NCBI GenBank assembly: GCA_965277405.1
Contig: OZ255726.1
Coordinates: 768,001-832,000 of the forward strand
Length of the DNA: 64,000 bases
Direction of reading: 5' to 3'
Origin: Gammaproteobacteria bacterium
GTDB taxonomy: Bacteria > Pseudomonadota > Gammaproteobacteria > G965277405
The notes beneath the pieces were generated by a model. That model had not been told where the DNA came from. It saw only the letters and a list, made by a program, of their open reading frames with translations, and did not search any database. Within the stretch, counting starts at the first letter, position 1. The number at the start of each line of letters is the position of its first letter. The position numbers and the translations under genes were made by a program. Shown piece by piece: positions 33,054 through 40,312 of this stretch.

Positions 33054-33320
33054 CGACAAAAAGTCTCCACAATAGGAGTGACTAGAGTCTGGACTCATTG
33101 TTTGATACTAATACAATGAGCGTATCAGTCATAGCGTATTGCGAATGTATGCTTGATCAGAGTTTCACGATAGTTGGTTGTCATAAGCAGACGAACTAGT
33201 CGCTCCTAATCGTCACGGACCACGTGCACATTGCGTTTAACCCTCTGCCCTTTTGCCAGCAGTTCACCTTGCCTAGCATCGGCATTTTGATCGACTGTGT
33301 GGGTTCAACTCGATAATTAG

Positions 33321-34561
33321 GGAAGCTCTGATTAAGACGCTCATATACTCCAATAACTCGCATATACTCCAAAAAAATAATAGCAATAATTTTCAATGGT
33401 CAATATTTGATCATTTCGCTGATCTTCGTGTTGCTGTTTTACTGTTTTTTACTGTTTTTTACTGTTTTTACTGTTTTTTACTGTTTTTCTTGAATTTTGG
33501 GCGGTTCTATCCTGTTAGTCGTCCGCGCAGCATGTATAAGTTCGTCAATGCAAGCAAAGAAAATACTTGTACTCGGTTCTTTTCTAGTCCTTTGTAGCGA
33601 GCTTTCTTATAACCAAACTGACATTTGATTACCCGAAAACAGTGCTCAATCCGGGCGCGCACCTTAGAGTTCTGTCTATTGCGTTTGCGCTGCGAGCCGC
33701 TCATTTGCTGCTTTGGTTTACGTTTATCATTCACGCGCCAATCTATCCCAAGGTGACGCGAGCCGCGTTTATAACTGTCGCTCGTATATCCTGCATCGGC
33801 AAAGATAACCTTATCTGTTTCACGCAGCAATTTGGGGAGTTCATTGATGTCAGCTTCATTCGCGGCTGTGGTGGTGGGCATTGTCGCGCTATGAATCATA
33901 TTGCTATTAGCGTCAGTTCCTATATGAATCTTCATGCCAAAATACCACTAATTGCCTTTCCTTGTTTGCTGCATTTCAGGATCACGGGCTTTCTCTTTAA
34001 TTCTGCGTAGATGATGGCGCATTGATGGTCGTGGCAGCAACCATTGTCCCTGGTGAGATTATTATATTATTTTCCATACAATACTCATTCACGACAGCAA
34101 GTATCTTGACGCTGAGTTGATGTTTTTCTATGATCCTGCGGGCAAGTTCAAGATGGTGGTTTCATCAGGGATGGCATCGTCTATCAGCTCTATATGGGCA
34201 AAACGCCGCATGCTTTCCATGTCATATAGTGCTTCTTCTACCCCTGGGTCTGATAAGTTGTACCATTGCTGTAAAAAATAAATGCGTAACATGGTCTGCA
34301 TATTAATCGGTGGGCGGCCATTCCCTTTCTTGGGATAATGCGGTTCTATTAACTCTAACAACTGTTGCCATGGAGCTAATTTGTCCATTAACTGCAAGAA
34401 TTTTTTTTGGTTTTGTTGTTACTTTCTTGTGGTCGTATGCAGCACTGGCAAAAGTTGTTTGTTTCATAAGATTATCCGCTTATTCAAATATTCAAATAGA
34501 TTCACCATTGTATATCTTTCTAGCTGATATTGCTGTTGTTTGGGACTTAATCAGAGGTTCC
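33321..34561 (-). mobile_element. Full-length IS5-subgroup element (lineage A) with a frameshifted transposase (34467->33507)
   Basis: TIRs GGAAGCTCTGATTAAG / CTTAATCAGAGGTTCC; TSD TTAG; MLRIYFLQQWYNLSDP, IPDETTILN, GMKIHIG, ADAGY and RARIEH motifs. Confidence 0.92.
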
Positions 34562-34585
34562 TTAGCTAAGCCCTTTTTAAATAAA
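34562..34585. repeat. Left copy of the 24-bp direct repeat bounding the cassette
   Basis: TTAGCTAAGCCCTTTTTAAATAAA; 23/24 identical to 37920-37943. Confidence 0.85.
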
Positions 34586-34730
34586 CAATCAATACGGGAA
34601 AACTTCCATAACTCGCTTGACAAATCCGAGGGGGGGGGTGATATTAACCTATGGTTAATAAATTAAGGGTTGGTCAACTACAACTATCAAAGAGCGTAGC
34701 CGCCTGAACAAAATGCTATGAGGGCTTAGC

Positions 34731-35660
34731 GTGCGTTTCAATTTAGTTGTTGCAATAATTATTGTATTTGCAATTTCAAATGCAAGTCATGCGCAGAAGA
34801 AAAAGCTCCCGCAGGAGCAGGATGGTATCGACTTGGCTCTGGAAGAGCTGTAGACAGATAAAGGCAAAATCAAGCTTGAAGCTGGTTTTACCTATAATGC
34901 CAGCACATCCGATAGAATCACTGGAGCGTTTGAAACGATTCAAACAGGAACTGGGGCATTCGTCTCTGTTCCAACTGACCTTGGGGCATCTCGTCGTGAA
35001 GCCGATACGCTGATTGGGTCAGCAACGCTACGCTATGGCTTAACCACAAAGTCAGAAGTGTTTTTTAGAGGATCAGCCATTTACTCTAATAGTCGTATTA
35101 CAGATGGTATTATAGGACTAACCGCAACATCTGATAGTGCTCGTTTGTTAAATGCGGTCGCAGGGGTTAATTATCGCTTCCTTGAAGACGGAGAATACCC
35201 CAGTCTCATAGGTTTTGCCGATATAACACTCGCTGAAAATGTGGCCTCTAGCGGTTCAGAGTTTGTTTTTGCAAGATCAGGTACAATTGGATTTACTGCC
35301 TATAAAGTTATTGATCCTGTTGTCTTATCTTTGACAGCTGGTTTTCGCCCAGCTTTATCGCGTGATGTTAATGGAACAAAAATTGATCCAGGTGATTCAA
35401 TTTTTCTAAATCCTTCCCTTGCTTTTGCTGTTAACAATGAACTGACGCTGACAGGTGGTCTTTCCATGCGTTTTCAAGGTGCTGATGAGGTCGGAGGTGT
35501 TCGTCAAGGGTCAAGACAGACTCGCGCGGATATGGAATTTGGGGTGGCCTATGCGTGGGATCACACAACAACTCTACGCATGGACACACGCGCGGATGTT
35601 ATTGGTGAGGGTGGCCTCACCATTGGCATAAACCTCACCAAGAAATTTGGTGGCAACTGA
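34731..35660 (+). pseudogene. Outer-membrane beta-barrel (MetA-pathway/FapF-like transporter class) with one in-frame TAG at codon 41
   Basis: GTG start, signal peptide ...ASHA, LEEL*TDKGKIKLE..TY, TLRYGLT, FAVNNELTL; alternating beta strands ending ...LTKKF. Confidence 0.7.
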
Positions 35661-35687
35661 CATCAACCTTAAGAAAGGAGCATTTTT

Positions 35688-36290
35688 ATGAAAATTTTAT
35701 CAAGATCTGTCTTGTGTTTGACCTTATTTTCATTCGCAGCACAGCCTGTCATGGCTGATTCACTAACAAGCCATGATTTAAATTTTGCCTTTGGGGGAGG
35801 AACTGCTGTTTCCAAAACCATCAATCAGCATACATCGTCTCTAACCAAAGCAAAACGACCATCCCAACAATTGGCTTCACTTCAACCACTTTTAGCTAAA
35901 GAAATGAAAGAAACTGAAGGGGCTTGGCTGAATTTTGCCATTGGTGGTGCAATAGGTCTTGGATCATATCTTTACACAACTCCTCGTAGTAGTTGGAGTT
36001 GGGGTGGTGCGGCTAGAAATACTGCATACGTCTTAGTAGGTGGCGGTGCATTTAAAGCAGCCAGATATGTAGCGAGACCTTGGGTGCGTGTTGGTAGTAG
36101 CTACAGCAGAAGCGGTGGTTTTAGAACTTATTCAATAAGAACAGGTTCAAACAGATATTATCAAAATAACTCATACCTTCGCCATAGTTCAACACTACGG
36201 AGCTGGAACTCACGAGCACGCAACGATTCTTTCGTAAGCAGAAGCTGGAGAACACGCGATCGTGGCCACTATCATTTATGGAGACGCTAA
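35688..36290 (+). CDS. Exported precursor: signal peptide, double-glycine-type leader, Gly-rich segment, basic C-terminal domain (putative toxin)
   Basis: AAGGAG RBS; ...PVMA|D; LLAKEMKETEGA|WLNFAIGGAIGLG; Arg/Ser-rich tail ending GHYHLWRR. Confidence 0.7.
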   Translation: MKILSRSVLCLTLFSFAAQPVMADSLTSHDLNFAFGGGTAVSKTINQHTSSLTKAKRPSQQLASLQPLLAKEMKETEGAWLNFAIGGAIGLGSYLYTTPRSSWSWGGAARNTAYVLVGGGAFKAARYVARPWVRVGSSYSRSGGFRTYSIRTGSNRYYQNNSYLRHSSTLRSWNSRARNDSFVSRSWRTRDRGHYHLWRR

Positions 36291-36370
36291 TAGTATCCAC
36301 TTTCTTTAAATTATGAATATCCCTCTGGTTGTATTTAATGCAATATTCATAGGCATATTTGTCTATTGAG

Positions 36371-36913
36371 ATGAAATCTATCAAAATGAATAATTTACAA
36401 ATATTCCAAGAATGCGGACAACCAATAGAAGCCGCTCGATTTTTTAAAATCATTGAATACATTGAGAATTATGATTTAATCCCTGAAAAAGATCAGTCAC
36501 TTTATGTATACGGACATACATTTAAATCACGCAGCTGCTTAAAAAAGCTATCTCATAATCTACAAATAAAGCATTTTAAAAAGCAATACGGATTAAAGGC
36601 TATCCTAATTCCTATATCTAGTCCTAATTCCTTTATCTTAAAACTGTTATCATCAAAAATATTACTTGATACTTTCAATGCTCTCGATGAGTATGTATTT
36701 TTTAATGTTGCTTTATTCAAAAATTCCTTCGAAAAATATTTTTTAGAAAAATTTGATGTTTCTGATGTTTGCGCAAGTAGCTCTTATATAAAACAGGATC
36801 CTGCTTATTTCATATATGGAGCTGATTTTGATCATAATGAAAGTGATACAGGTATAATGGAATTTTTCTCTTATGGGGAAAACGCTCCCAATAGTCTAAC
36901 AGCTTTTTTATAA
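36371..36913 (+). CDS. AT-rich hypothetical protein, candidate immunity protein
   Basis: Directly downstream of the precursor; no signal peptide; aromatic-rich with acidic C-terminus. Confidence 0.55.
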   Translation: MKSIKMNNLQIFQECGQPIEAARFFKIIEYIENYDLIPEKDQSLYVYGHTFKSRSCLKKLSHNLQIKHFKKQYGLKAILIPISSPNSFILKLLSSKILLDTFNALDEYVFFNVALFKNSFEKYFLEKFDVSDVCASSSYIKQDPAYFIYGADFDHNESDTGIMEFFSYGENAPNSLTAFL

Positions 36914-37235
36914 GAAAAAATACTCTATGCCAAAAGAACAAATCATCTGGAAAAATTATGTGGTAGTAATAACCAAAGCCATGATGAATTTCAGGGACAA
37001 ATGCGGTTTAAGTATGGAAGAGGCGATAAAAATCGTAGCGAATTATCGTGAAGACATATGTAAAATATTACAGAATTTCTAGTTGACACGATTTCGGAAG
37101 TTGATGCGGATAGGAGTTCTTTTGATGAAACCATAAAAAGGCTGGAGATGTGTAATAGAGCTGATGATTTCGTCATATATATGAACGAGTGTTAATGCAG
37201 GGGAAAATTATTCTTCTTATCTTGTAAATAATGTC

Positions 37236-37904
37236 ATGCTTGAACTTTTAACCAAATTTATTATCCGCTCTGTCTTTGTAGTTTTAGTTACACTTTCTTG
37301 TGTGCTTTGGGGAAAAACTGATGCAGCAGAATTATCAACAACAAATTTGATTGGATCAATTCGTGTTACTTCATGGAAGGCCTTAAGGGATTTTAGGGTT
37401 GTCAAACAGGCACTGGATTATTCCTGTGGCGCCGCCTCTGTGGCAACGATCCTGAATGAATTCTACGGGTTTTCATTAACTGAAAAAGATATTCTGGACG
37501 CTATGGAGCAGGATGGTGTCGCCTCCTTTGAGGATTTAGCTAATGTTGTTCTGCAATATGGCTTTAAGGGAGGTGGTATTGCCCTTTCATTTAAGGATTT
37601 AACACAACTTAAAATTCCAGCCATTGCTTATCTAAAATATCGGGGTGAAGATCATTTTTCTGTCATTCGGGGTATTCGTTCAGATGGAGTGGTTCATTTG
37701 GGTGATCCATCTTGGGGCAATCGTCAATTTACACAACACCAGTTTCGTAAAATGTGGGAGACAAGAGAAGAGAGTGACGCAAAGGGTAAAGTTTTACTTA
37801 TAATTCCCCGCGAACTTGCCAACGCAAAAATAGATGAAACTTTTTTTAACACACCAAGAGGATGGCGGTTGAGTCTGGAAACCATAAATCTTTCCCGTCC
37901 TTAA
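37236..37904 (+). CDS. Stand-alone exported C39-family cysteine peptidase (FapD-like)
   Basis: N-terminal hydrophobic signal; VVKQALDYSCGAAS, HFSV and GDPSWGN catalytic motifs; no ABC domain. Confidence 0.88.
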   Translation: MLELLTKFIIRSVFVVLVTLSCVLWGKTDAAELSTTNLIGSIRVTSWKALRDFRVVKQALDYSCGAASVATILNEFYGFSLTEKDILDAMEQDGVASFEDLANVVLQYGFKGGGIALSFKDLTQLKIPAIAYLKYRGEDHFSVIRGIRSDGVVHLGDPSWGNRQFTQHQFRKMWETREESDAKGKVLLIIPRELANAKIDETFFNTPRGWRLSLETINLSRP

Positions 37905-37919
37905 TCTCACCTTTGGCAG

Positions 37920-37943
37920 TTAGCTAAACCCTTTTTAAATAAA
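37920..37943. repeat. Right copy of the 24-bp direct repeat
   Basis: TTAGCTAAACCCTTTTTAAATAAA. Confidence 0.85.
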
Positions 37944-38067
37944 GCTATCTGTTCATCCACCTGCTTGATGCCAGCCAGAGTAAAAATCTCGCTCCAGCTC
38001 ATGGCCTGATTTAAACAAAAAATAGCTATCAAAGTTTGCTAGCGAGCTATCATCCCTGAACCTAGTC

Positions 38068-39290
38068 GGATCTGTTGCAAATAGATTAAAACTTGATAAA
38101 AATTAAAAATTTTGTACAAACACAGAATTTTCTATCAATCCAAGGTTTAACAATCAATATTTGCTGGTATTTTCAGTCAAATAGCTGTTTTTTGGCGCAG
38201 TTATCCTACAAAACGCCACCATACTTTACGTCTAACACCACCTGCCTTTTCAGGTTAAATGCTAGACACTCCAGAAATATCGCAAACTGATTCTTTGCTA
38301 CTCCCACATATCTAACCCGATGATTGGTTTTTGAAAATACTCTTTCATACGGAGAACGCAGCTTGCTAAAGAATGTATCTTGGTCTTTGTTTTTATCTTT
38401 CATATTATTCTTTTTTATAGCTGCCAAATGGCAACGCTTTTTAGCGGCTGCATGTCTTGCTCCTTTGCTGCAATAACCTTTATCTGCATATATAGCACCT
38501 TGTGTTGGAATAACATGACCAATACCTTGTCCGTCTGTTACGTTAGCTGGTGTTATCGCTACTTTATTAATCAAGCCTGACTGCATATCAACACTAATAT
38601 GTTTCTTATAGCCATACCAAAATGTACCGTTACCTTTGCAGCCAATGCGGGCTTGTTTGTCTGTAGCTACTTTAGGTAAAACCTCATTATTAAGTTTGGC
38701 GTACTTTTGCTGGATTACTCTATCTCTCTCTTCCCACAAATTAGCTTTAGCTATTAAATGAGAGGCATCTATACAAGTAAATACCTCATTCATGTACCCA
38801 TGTTGTTGCAATTGAGCGCGAACATCTGCAAATATCTTAGATAATTGGTGCGTACCTATACGCGCTCTAGCTCTTGTAAATACTGTATGATCTGGCGTAG
38901 GCGCGGTTAACGCTACATTACAAAACCATTACAAAACTATTTAGCAGCGGTGTTTTCTGTTAAGTAACTTTCTAGCTCTCTATCACTTAAATCTTCTAAG
39001 TGTTGCAGCAGTAGTGCTTTAAATAACAGTTCTATACCATAACCTTTATAGTTGCTAGAGCCTTGTGCTGTTTTTAAATATTTATTATCTAAGCGGCGAA
39101 TATCTATTAATTGAACAAACTTTCGGTATATATGATCAGCGGCTACTAGATCTGCTAGGGTAATCATTTCTACTTGTTTATACATGATATTTAAAATATA
39201 AGGTTGTAGTTGAGTTGAATGATTTTACACCAGGCTATAAGCAATATACCTAATCAATAAGATTATTTGTCTTCTATTTGCAACAGTCCC
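38068..39290 (-). mobile_element. IS5 lineage C, second copy; transposase split by a short duplication near 38920-38940
   Basis: Both TIRs; ORFs 38937-39185 and 38206-38811 match 7242-8213. Confidence 0.92.
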
Positions 39291-39358
39291 AACTATTAAA
39301 GGTGCAATTCTGCTGTTCGTTGTTGCCCTGCAATCGCGCAAAAAAATGGGATTATAAA

Positions 39359-40312
39359 ATGTCAAGCATTCTCAACAGCCCAATCATCAATAAAATAGCG
39401 CGCGTCCCACCGTCGTATTTTGTTTTTTTTGGACTGACACTGCTGTTGTGGATCACCCGTCCCCACATGATGAACATCAACACCATGGGCATTTTCATCC
39501 GCCAAGTTGTACCGCTTGGGATATTAGTCCTCGGCCAGTTGCTCGTAATTCGCGTGAATTCCATCGATCTGTCTGGATTTGGAGTAATTTTAATTGTGAA
39601 TTATTTTATCTCATCAAATCTTTTTGCTGGAGCTTCGATTCCTTTCTATATCAGCATATCTTTGGCGACTGGTTTGTTTGTTGGTCTGTTCAACGGCTAC
39701 ATGGTTGGCAAACGGCGTGTGTCTGCTGTGGTTGTGACACTCGCAGTTAACATTATTATCGTTGGGATTGTGCAGTTTATGGCCAGCGGTAAACCTCCTG
39801 GCGGCGTGCCGACGGTGTTAAATGATATCTACAATAGCAAAATATGGCTGATTCCAACCCCGATTGTGTTCTGGGTAGCACTGACGGTGTCGATGTCGCT
39901 TTTCCTTTCGCGCTTTGTTTTCGGGCGTGACGTAATGTCAGTTGGCGAGAATCCAACTGCTGCCCATTTCTCAGGAGTTCCTGTCGAGCGCACAGTGATC
40001 ATCGCCCACACAATTGCTGGTCTGATGGCCGGGATTGCAGCCTTCGTCCAGACTACTTCAATTGTCATGGGTTCCGCTCGGCTAGGGGCAGAATTGCCGA
40101 TTCTTGCGGTCTCGGCAACCATTCTTGGCGGGGTTGTGTTTGGTAAAGGCGAGGGAGGCGTGTGGGGACCGTACTTTGGCGTTTTGGCCTTTGCTCTGCT
40201 GTTTGTAGTAATGACCACTTTCAATATTGGTGAACCTGGAAAACTCATTGCGCAAGGGCTGATCATTTTGCTCGCGGTGATTGTATACGGGGTAAGATCC
40301 AAACAATCCTGA
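39359..40312 (+). CDS. Sugar ABC transporter permease (RbsC-like), orphaned
   Basis: SIDLS, FGRDVMSVGENP.AAHFSGV and AT.LGG motifs; only the tail of an upstream permease survives at 39291-39358. Confidence 0.85.
   Translation: MSSILNSPIINKIARVPPSYFVFFGLTLLLWITRPHMMNINTMGIFIRQVVPLGILVLGQLLVIRVNSIDLSGFGVILIVNYFISSNLFAGASIPFYISISLATGLFVGLFNGYMVGKRRVSAVVVTLAVNIIIVGIVQFMASGKPPGGVPTVLNDIYNSKIWLIPTPIVFWVALTVSMSLFLSRFVFGRDVMSVGENPTAAHFSGVPVERTVIIAHTIAGLMAGIAAFVQTTSIVMGSARLGAELPILAVSATILGGVVFGKGEGGVWGPYFGVLAFALLFVVMTTFNIGEPGKLIAQGLIILLAVIVYGVRSKQS

Follow-up and report, generated by a model that had tools for sequence, protein, structure and literature searches.

A barrel and C39 peptidase cassette of the Fap/Nap type in a gammaproteobacterium, with a candidate polymorphic toxin and a paired candidate immunity gene

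Bacteriocins of Gram-negative bacteria that carry a double-glycine leader are thought to need an ATP-binding cassette (ABC) pump with a fused peptidase. In this study, we analysed a gene cassette in which a leader-bearing precursor is encoded between a FapF/NapF-like outer-membrane barrel and a stand-alone C39 cysteine peptidase. The cassette lies in a stretch of 64,000 nucleotides (the window; positions 768,001 to 832,000 of contig OZ255726.1, assembly GCA_965277405.1) from a Gammaproteobacteria bacterium. An earlier note, made from the letters of the sequence, had proposed that a bacteriocin or polymorphic toxin takes a two-step route here, in the manner of Fap. This proposal is supported by the co-occurrence of the genes, by variable C-termini paired with downstream genes, by a FapF-like model of the barrel and by a model of the peptidase-leader complex. 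We consider it fairly probable that the locus represents a mobile cassette, 3.3 kb in size and of the FapD/FapF (Nap) type, that carries a polymorphic toxin and its immunity gene, with export that needs no ABC pump. Three things had been missed by the earlier note: a nonsense codon in the barrel gene, the published nap island, and the fact that the basic tail of the precursor is a discrete domain common to RHS/YD-type proteins.

Closest described systems

The machinery of the cassette is already known and is of the Fap/Nap type. In the Fap system, FapD is a periplasmic C39 peptidase that is catalytically required and FapF is a 12-stranded trimeric exit pore (PDB 5o65); the target of FapD is left open in the parts of the paper drawn on here (Rouse et al. 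2017, PMC5557850). Components exported by Sec, a periplasmic C39 and a 12-stranded barrel are common to Fap and, by prediction, to the window cassette. The two differ in several respects. The window barrel lacks FapF's long periplasmic coiled coil at the N-terminus, with 41 codons, signal peptide included, ahead of the barrel part. Its C39 falls under the cut-off of the FapD equivalog family, and also under that of FilB from Fil, the 'putative pilus' system of Acinetobacter. The window cargo carries an explicit leader, whereas the substrate of FapD is left open in the passages cited (PMC5557850). No FapA-, FapB-, FapC- or FapE-like subunit was recognised in the window; library scans and reading, with no direct comparison to the Fap subunits, gave no Pfam or NCBIfam match and no visible repeats for the cargo.

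The gonococcal nap island consists of NapF (FapF-like), NapP (a C39 peptidase), the cationic double-glycine peptides NapA, NapB and NapC, and a candidate immunity protein, NapI (Poncin et al., PLoS Biol 2025, PMC11798529). The Naps are described as peptides of less than 10 kDa, with mature parts of 16-36 residues, that are made in the cytoplasm, and the term 'signal peptide' does not occur in the portion of the paper's text drawn on here. As far as this portion goes, nap and the window cassette have in common a FapF-like barrel and a stand-alone C39 without an ABC pump, a basic cargo that is (in the window, by prediction) processed at a double-glycine-type leader, and an AT-rich, horizontally acquired core with a candidate immunity gene. 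The window cargo differs from the short Nap peptides in being a Sec precursor of 200 residues with a modelled folded domain, and the reported function of the Naps is autolysis and haemolysis, not competition (PMC11798529).

The gonococcal genome has homologues of the window barrel (E 4.5e-100 and 1.2e-45) and of the window C39 (E 2e-75 and 5.3e-18). The weaker matches, 1.2e-45 for the barrel and 5.3e-18 for the C39, belong to a nap-type locus beside a pseudouridine synthase gene (L033/L035), the neighbour that the Nap paper gives for the island. This locus, seen in one assembly, comprises a half barrel of 180 residues (profile positions 12-176 of 308), an AT-rich core and a C39 gene at the contig end, and its contig gave no match to the leader hidden Markov model (HMM). 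In the passages of the Nap paper at hand, a half barrel as a channel is not discussed, and the legend of S2 Fig mentions a 'long NEIS0907 allele' at NGO_0166 (PMC11798529). A second gonococcal locus (L025), beside the ZnuA gene, encodes a full barrel of 288 residues, a Sec precursor with a KEMKETEGA leader, and a fragment of the window's C-terminal module. L025 was considered as the nap island and rejected, because its flanking genes and the same legend place it at the NGO_0166-type locus. The KEMKETEGA leader that the earlier note had mentioned for Neisseria is thus real, since L025 encodes a precursor of this kind.

Peptidase-containing ABC transporters (PCATs) and their class II microcins resemble the cassette in leader register (Leu at -12, Ser at -11, Glu at -8, a hydrophobic residue at -7 and Gly at -2), in the C39 catalytic domain, in a Gly-rich mature part and in a neighbouring immunity gene, which in the window is a candidate. 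Whereas the C39 of an ABC pump is a cytoplasmic domain at its N-terminus, that of the window is a separate protein of 222 residues that is predicted to be exported, and the leader is not N-terminal but stands behind a Sec signal and a pro-region. There is also no conserved ABC or membrane-fusion gene; as the earlier note had observed, no ABC or HlyD gene lies between the flanking insertion sequence (IS) copies, by ORF (open reading frame) reading and family scans.

Polymorphic toxins (RHS/YD, CdiA, MafB) have a constant N-terminal trafficking part with swapped C-termini, a gene immediately downstream that co-varies with the C-terminal domain, and C-terminal domains common to different scaffolds, all of which are also features of the cassette family, as far as the passages of Zhang et al. 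2012 (PMC3482391) extend. The differences are that the trafficking part in the window is just a signal peptide and a putatively cleavable leader, that delivery would be by a barrel and a periplasmic peptidase, neither of which appears in those passages, and that the window domain matches no Pfam toxin family. A literature search that did not cover subscription journals found the Fap and Nap papers and none that describes the wider cassette family or reports a toxin as its cargo. The Sec-plus-leader cargo, the RHS/YD-shared domain and the paired downstream gene are not in the papers that it reached.

Genes of the cassette

The five ORFs listed by the earlier note are all on the forward strand where it had placed them, and form a co-directional set between two broken IS copies in our reading of the window (Table 1). 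The middle of the set is AT-rich, with a GC content of 0.29-0.34 over positions 36200-37200 versus 0.42-0.46 over the barrel gene.

The anatomy that had been proposed for the precursor, a Sec signal followed by an internal leader, a Gly-rich segment and a basic tail, was seen in our analysis as well. The leader, LLAKEMKETEGA followed by Trp, is present, and E72, M73, E75, T76, E77 and G78 are invariant in 14 database homologues (leader HMM match on the window precursor, 9e-08). If the cut is made after Ala79, the motif LS.QEM.ETEG[A/E] sets Leu at -12, Ser at -11, Glu at -8, Met at -7, Thr at -4 and Gly at -2. The canonical double-glycine leader consensus is LS..EL..I.GG, and the register as read from the window sequence matches it. 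Our leader search pattern admitted only A, E, G or S at -1; leaders with Leu or Gln at this position occur in two metagenome loci (L043 and L045), and the invariant residue is the Gly at -2.

The Gly-rich segment models as three helices with a predicted local distance difference test score (pLDDT) of 53-76, and similar Gly-rich segments stand ahead of the same C-terminal domain in RHS-type proteins. The basic domain is modelled as a beta-hairpin, helices and a terminal strand, with block-mean pLDDT of 89-97. The predicted mature product of 121 residues has an isoelectric point (pI) of 11.7. An HMM of the C-terminal module matched the window precursor at 9e-27. Across 37 sequences, nine module positions do not vary; in the final motif these include W-R, D, G-H and H, which map by offset to W187, R188, D191, G193, H194 and H196 of the precursor; the signature of the module is WxRxG.SYS...RWGS...SWRT.D.GHFHLWRR. 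The protein atlas gave no usable match for the basic domain, and a scan of viral contigs with it returned four matching pattern stretches, none of which was confirmed.

The peptidase matched Pfam PF03412 (Peptidase_C39) with E 1.1e-19 and 71 bits (cut-off 22), and Gln58, Cys64, His140 and Asp157 are the same in all 15 homologues aligned, in agreement with the original call of a C39 peptidase with intact Q/C/H/D motifs. A hydrophobic N-terminal segment, probably a signal peptide or an anchor, is found in the window C39 (maximum KD19 of 2.18, at residue 8) and in its full-length homologues. The scores against the NCBIfam families FilB (NF050078; 80.4 bits, cut-off 475) and FapD (NF058616; 74.6 bits, cut-off 330) are both under the cut-offs, so the window C39 is related to FilB and FapD and an equivalog of neither. 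A complex of C39 residues 40-222 with precursor residues 40-105 was modelled with a score of 0.66, versus 0.02 for the best of three controls; in calibration, the mark was attained by 58 of 80 solved complexes and by 2 of 110 mismatched pairs. The runs agreed in at least 70% of contacts, with a partner pLDDT of at least 49. In the modelled interface, precursor residues 61-68, 70 and 72-81 face C39 residues 61-62, 64-65 and 138-141, and the EGA-W stretch is set at the neighbourhoods of Cys64 and His140. The model of a peptidase-leader complex, which the earlier note had named as a check, is thus in agreement with its proposal and does not show cleavage.

What had been called a signal-peptide beta-barrel gene has a signal-peptide start and, in the model, a FapF-like fold, but it is not one open frame. 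The frame comprises 310 codons with one internal TAG, and is read as 34731-34853 (40 residues, with the signal peptide) and 35058-35660 in the same frame. The column of the TAG holds Leu in 14 of 15 aligned homologues and Ile in the other. Base 34852 is A, with no other letter, in the contigs of two runs spanning the whole stretch; both runs come from one study, which is possibly the source of the assembly, and run X3 has no coverage at this base. A relative that is about 90% alike has T at 34852, which gives TTG (Leu). The genome's own protein record (P0016) is just the barrel tail of 200 residues, and the closest intact homologue (P0015) has 330 residues and 73% identity. The 14 full-length homologues (at least 98% coverage) are 293-330 residues long, and the fifteenth aligned homologue has 309.

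Several barrel homologues carry PF13557 or PF13505, and the window barrel itself has no Pfam or NCBIfam match. The part after the stop was modelled with AlphaFold (AF2) from 37 sequences, with a pLDDT of 87.3. In a Foldseek search with this model, FapF chains fill ranks 1-10 (5o65: E 3.5e-13, template modelling score 0.75) and the COG4313 channel follows. VIA-align against FapF gave Z 24.8 and a root-mean-square deviation of 2.0 over 231 aligned residues at 20% identity. The modelled barrel thus matches the FapF fold. The model superposes on FapF residues 103-406, aligning from model residue 1, and only about 40 residues, including the signal peptide, precede this part, which is why we consider the coiled coil of FapF to be absent.

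The AT-rich ORF downstream of the precursor gave no Pfam or NCBIfam match and, in the protein atlas, leads of 0.78 and 0.76 only. Its maximum KD19 is 1.30, and members of its family share a conserved acidic motif at the C-terminus and lack a hydrophobic segment, traits that, as far as can be read from sequence, are as expected for a cytoplasmic partner. It has no similarity to the gonococcal ORF of 182 residues at 6093-6638 of L025. The small ORF that follows had been described as broken, which is plausible; it has no homologue in the fetched loci and only sub-threshold Pfam matches.

Table 1. Features of the cassette and its flanks (positions in the window)
Feature	Position	Strand	Remarks
IS copy A	33318..34564	-	transposase split in two: 33507-33935 and 34128-34397
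IS copy A ends	33318-33336 and 34546-34564		19-nt inverted repeats
24-nt direct repeat, left copy	34562..34585	+	family D3; overlaps IS copy A end by 3 nt
Best promoter-like site	34617..34645	+	upstream of barrel gene; 10/12 consensus matches; 17-nt spacer
FapF/NapF-like 12-stranded outer-membrane barrel gene	34731..35660	+	TAG-interrupted at 34851-34853 (codon 41)
Precursor gene	35688-36290	+	200 aa
Precursor residues 1-23	35688..35756	+	Sec-type signal peptide read by eye: basic start, hydrophobic core, VMA before D; conserved in alignment
Precursor residues 24-79	35757..35924	+	pro-region ending in double-glycine-type leader LLAKEMKETEGA
Mature residues 80-122	35925..36053	+	Gly-rich hydrophobic segment, 21% Gly, grand average of hydropathy (GRAVY) +0.37
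Residues 123-200	36054..36287	+	basic C-terminal 78-aa domain, pI 11.9, 18 Lys/Arg; candidate toxin domain
AT-rich ORF, candidate cognate immunity protein	36359..36913	+	184 aa, GC 0.29-0.34; no signal peptide or membrane helix
Small ORF	36927..37198	+	51 aa (36927-37082), may run on in another frame to 37198
Stand-alone C39 cysteine peptidase	37236..37904	+	222 aa, hydrophobic N-terminus
24-nt direct repeat, right copy	37920..37943	+	23/24 (96%) identical to left copy
IS copy B	38063..39295	-	transposase in two pieces; DDE_Tnp_1 2.8e-15, DUF772 1.4e-06
IS copy B ends	38063-38085 and 39273-39295		23-nt inverted repeats

Synteny, C-terminal variation and the shared domain

Twenty-four genome loci were gathered by the leader pattern and scored with HMMs built in this analysis. 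The loci come from Alpha-, Beta- and Gammaproteobacteria and from one Saprospiraceae (Bacteroidota) metagenome-assembled genome (MAG); the hosts include Rhodobacterales, Burkholderiales, Neisseria, Moraxella, Thiotrichales, Marinobacter and Methylotenera. The barrel was found in 20 of the 24 loci and the C39 in 19, with both present in 17, so that the co-occurrence predicted by the earlier note is observed, and neither in two (L017 and L021). Among the loci with one of the two, L004, L014, L025 and L027 stop at a contig end, and L016 is truly without a C39 within 6 kb. Of the 17 complete loci, 15 are arranged as barrel, precursor(s), C39, and the two Moraxella loci as precursors, barrel, C39. 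By a crude motif test, Walker A and the ABC signature occur together in ORFs of just 2 of the 24 loci. Frameshifted copies of the cassette were seen in L015, L016, L020 and L026. L017 (a Thiosymbion MAG) and L021 (Moraxella lacunata) have arrays of four and six leader genes with differing C-termini, which may serve as a store of alternative cargo. The basic module was also used to scan metagenomes, with a narrow alignment, and 10 loci were found, mostly on short contigs, with a barrel in seven and a C39 in four. One of them, L044 (3.1 kb), is naturally intact, with open frames for barrel, precursor, downstream ORF and C39.

The part of the precursor behind the leader is variable, as the earlier note had anticipated. 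Among the 33 leader-bearing genes of the 24 loci and the window, it falls into at least 10 BLAST clusters, some of which are merged by the Gly-rich segment. The contrast in median pairwise identity is weak (39% over the leader region of 28 residues versus 28% after the cut site). The downstream genes vary together with the C-terminus, which had likewise been suggested: five C-terminus types were each seen in more than one locus with a downstream gene family specific to the type. Type 1, that of the window, is found with the family of the 184-residue ORF in the window, L004 and also L014, and type 2 with a family of 207-211 residues in L004, L014 and L019. Type 3 recurs with its own family in L016 and L017, type 4 in Moraxella lacunata and N. 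gonorrhoeae, and type 5 in two Moraxella loci. The window pair is not confined to these genomes, as the AT-rich ORF family stands directly after a module-bearing gene in seven further loci (L004, L014 and 5 of the 10 metagenome loci, the latter with E 1e-47 to 1e-6).

Exchange of the same unit is seen in a relative that is about 90% alike (run X4; one contig, depth 54). It keeps the barrel, the precursor as far as 36048 and the C39, and its sequence differs in between, with 528 unrelated letters where the window has 36049-37225. The exchange begins within the Gly-rich segment, a little upstream of the module boundary, stops shortly upstream of the C39 gene, and takes out the C-terminal domain together with the downstream ORF and the small ORF.

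A profile of the precursor family was searched against 1.84 billion representatives and matched 469 proteins at E <= 1e-3, 93 of them at E <= 1e-10. The matches split into two separable modules, the leader and the C-terminal domain. One kind comprises many proteins of 80-200 residues that have the signal and leader part alone in common. The other matches the last ~65 profile positions alone, at the C-terminus of proteins of 242-1899 residues. Ten of these long proteins were scanned for families: P0193 has a TEN_YD-shell (2.8e-19) and an RHS repeat, P0179 a sub-threshold RHS match and P0176 LRR and Ig domains, and the remaining seven have no family. An Asp-Pro-x-Gly junction marks the end of RHS cores, and such a junction with a Gly-rich stretch precedes the module in several long proteins.

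Readings of the cassette, its borders and its meaning

On the basis of these results, we infer the following route. The precursor would cross the inner membrane by Sec and shed its signal peptide. The exported C39 would then recognise the second, double-glycine-type leader, LS.QEM.ETEG[A/E], in the periplasm and cut after Ala79, and the mature protein of 121 residues would leave through the 12-stranded FapF-like barrel without an ABC pump. In a neighbouring cell the basic domain would act as a toxin, most likely in the cytoplasm, and the cytoplasmic protein of 184 residues encoded next to it would protect the producer.

Several observations weigh against this toxin reading. The basic domain matches no Pfam family and no PDB fold (best Foldseek E 0.88 and best VIA Z 3.1, in searches with the whole 121-residue model and not with the isolated domain), and because of this the label 'toxin' comes from context only. 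RHS/YD families were found in just 2 of the 10 long proteins scanned, one of them under the cut-off. The domain is not always C-terminal either, because in one lineage from metagenome loci (L043, L045, L046, L048 and L049; precursors of 373-401 residues) the frame continues beyond it into a Pro/Ser-rich linker and a further stretch of about 200 residues. In seven loci the C39 comes straight after a Gly-rich cargo, and a candidate immunity ORF of at least 45 residues is lacking. Among 400 other genomes of the phylum, the downstream ORF family turned up in just one (G099), where no domain-bearing ORF stands upstream. The precursor arrays of L017 and L021 have no barrel or C39 within 6 kb, and 7 of the 33 pattern-selected leaders (L007, L013, L016 and L017) have Glu at -1, an unusual residue at this position in a C39 substrate. 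Solved C39-leader complexes exist, and the pass of our complex model may therefore reflect likeness to them. As regards the barrel, the small-molecule channel 4rl8 of the COG4313 family (VIA Z 23.8) ties with FapF (Z 24.8), and the sequence profile of the barrel family reached no FapF chain among PDB sequences, where the best matches were HU proteins (E 0.03). Finally, the gonococcal Naps, the only relatives studied by experiment, promote autolysis and lyse red cells and showed no antibacterial activity, according to the passages drawn on (PMC11798529).

The Nap results would agree with a self-directed system, in which the basic protein acts on the envelope of the producer (autolysis, programmed death) or on host cells and the downstream ORF modulates it. 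The very basic mature product, with its pI of 11.7, and the barrel and C39 homologues in the gonococcal nap locus are also consistent with this view. However, the leader HMM misses the nap locus, and the KEMKETEGA precursor is encoded at the other, NGO_0166-type locus. In addition, the cargo has a modelled folded module of 78 residues that is common to RHS/YD-type proteins and is paired with a putatively cytoplasmic downstream protein, and this layout is that of inter-bacterial toxins, not of short lytic peptides. We therefore regard a self-directed system as unlikely, while it is not negligible.

It is more doubtful still that the barrel serves as a general channel of the PF13557/COG4313 type, or for some other reason is not the exit route, and that the C39 matures a protein resident in the periplasm or membrane. 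The tie between 4rl8 and FapF, the PF13557 or PF13505 domains of the homologues and the profile search of PDB sequences, which found no link to FapF at sequence level, point in this direction, and the Gly-rich segment is hydrophobic enough for membrane residence. However, the barrel gene is directly beside leader genes in 20 of the 24 loci, from three classes of Proteobacteria and one member of the Bacteroidota, and in 7 of the 10 metagenome loci, and FapF fills the first ten Foldseek ranks. A surface fibre like those of Fap and Fil, with a self-assembling structural subunit (amyloid or pilus-like) as cargo in place of a toxin, is very improbable in our judgement. The C-termini are swapped among close relatives together with the downstream gene, which structural subunits would not need, and the window cargo has no visible repeats and ends in a discrete basic domain common to RHS/YD-type proteins. 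The best NCBIfam matches of the C39 are indeed the pilus-system FilB and the amyloid-system FapD, but at scores far under the cut-offs (80.4 of 475 and 74.6 of 330); Gly-rich hydrophobic segments can be aggregation-prone, and the seven loci with Gly-rich cargo and no candidate immunity gene would suit a fibre as well.

The borders of the cassette are marked by IS copies and by a direct repeat. The transposase of IS copy A matched DDE_Tnp_1 (1.3e-19) and DUF772 (2.6e-17) in a family search. Over 34400-34647, contigs are about 45-80 times as deep as over the cassette, and from 34561-34565 they run on in several different ways, which indicates that IS copy A is a multicopy element ending at about 34561-34565. 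Near its low-coordinate end, at 33437-33488, it contains a tandem array of about five copies of a 9-10-nucleotide unit resembling TTTTACTGTT. The 24-nucleotide direct repeat has only two copies in the 2.17-Mb genome, which exactly bracket the cassette (a control pattern gave 0 matches), and it could be the scar of an insertion or a site of recombination. Beyond IS copy B, the permease at 39278-40312 is a member of the BPD_transp_2 family.

Promoter-like sites and terminators in the region are at chance level (12 found versus 10.8 +/- 3.0 expected, and 3 versus 2.8 +/- 1.9, respectively). Among the sequencing runs listed as containing this DNA, none is of RNA. The spacer of the best promoter-like site contains a tract of nine G (34630-34638), and the genome has only four G/C runs of at least nine. 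It is possible that this tract is a slipped-strand on/off switch that makes expression phase-variable. The contig of a relative that aligns beside this site continues with other letters and without a G run (loose end at 34641), and contigs are blind to length variation.

The frames of the precursor, the downstream ORF and the C39 are still open in the window cassette. No intact barrel copy was found in the 2.17-Mb genome, in which the only other barrel match is a remnant of 66 residues within a second cassette at 684.6-686.8 kb. In view of this and of the nonsense codon in the barrel gene, the window copy has most likely lost the export of its cargo. Probably it has recently fallen victim to gene loss, in a genome rich in IS elements. 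The second cassette (G000:C1:684592-686798; L037 and L039) belongs to a different lineage and is more decayed, with only the last ~60 residues of the barrel. Its precursor carries the leader LSSGAMLETEGE; the other parts are two ORFs, AT-rich and multi-helix, and a C39 frame that contains three stops and is broken at the catalytic Cys.

The window copy is a decaying remnant, and it is of use because it leads to the family, not as a working system. We tentatively suggest, as a possibility that falls short of our main conclusion, that the barrel and periplasmic C39 form a widespread, undescribed, ABC-independent route by which diderm bacteria secrete polymorphic toxins and Gly-rich bacteriocins. 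Under this wider proposal, the LS..EM.ETEG[A/E] leader behind a Sec signal would be the long-sought recognition signal of FapD-class peptidases, the 78-residue W-R...D.GH.H domain would be a new toxin fold exchanged with RHS/YD proteins, and the nap island would be a derivative in which the cargo was replaced. The substrate of FapD-type periplasmic peptidases has been a question since 2017, and the family offers an explicit, conserved candidate tag for it. It also represents a minimal export module of three genes, natural copies of which fit in 3 kb, and links this putative export route to polymorphic toxins through a C-terminal domain that is shared with RHS/YD proteins and paired with a downstream gene. 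The gonococcal nap island is thereby placed in a much wider family, which extends over Alpha-, Beta- and Gammaproteobacteria and Bacteroidota.

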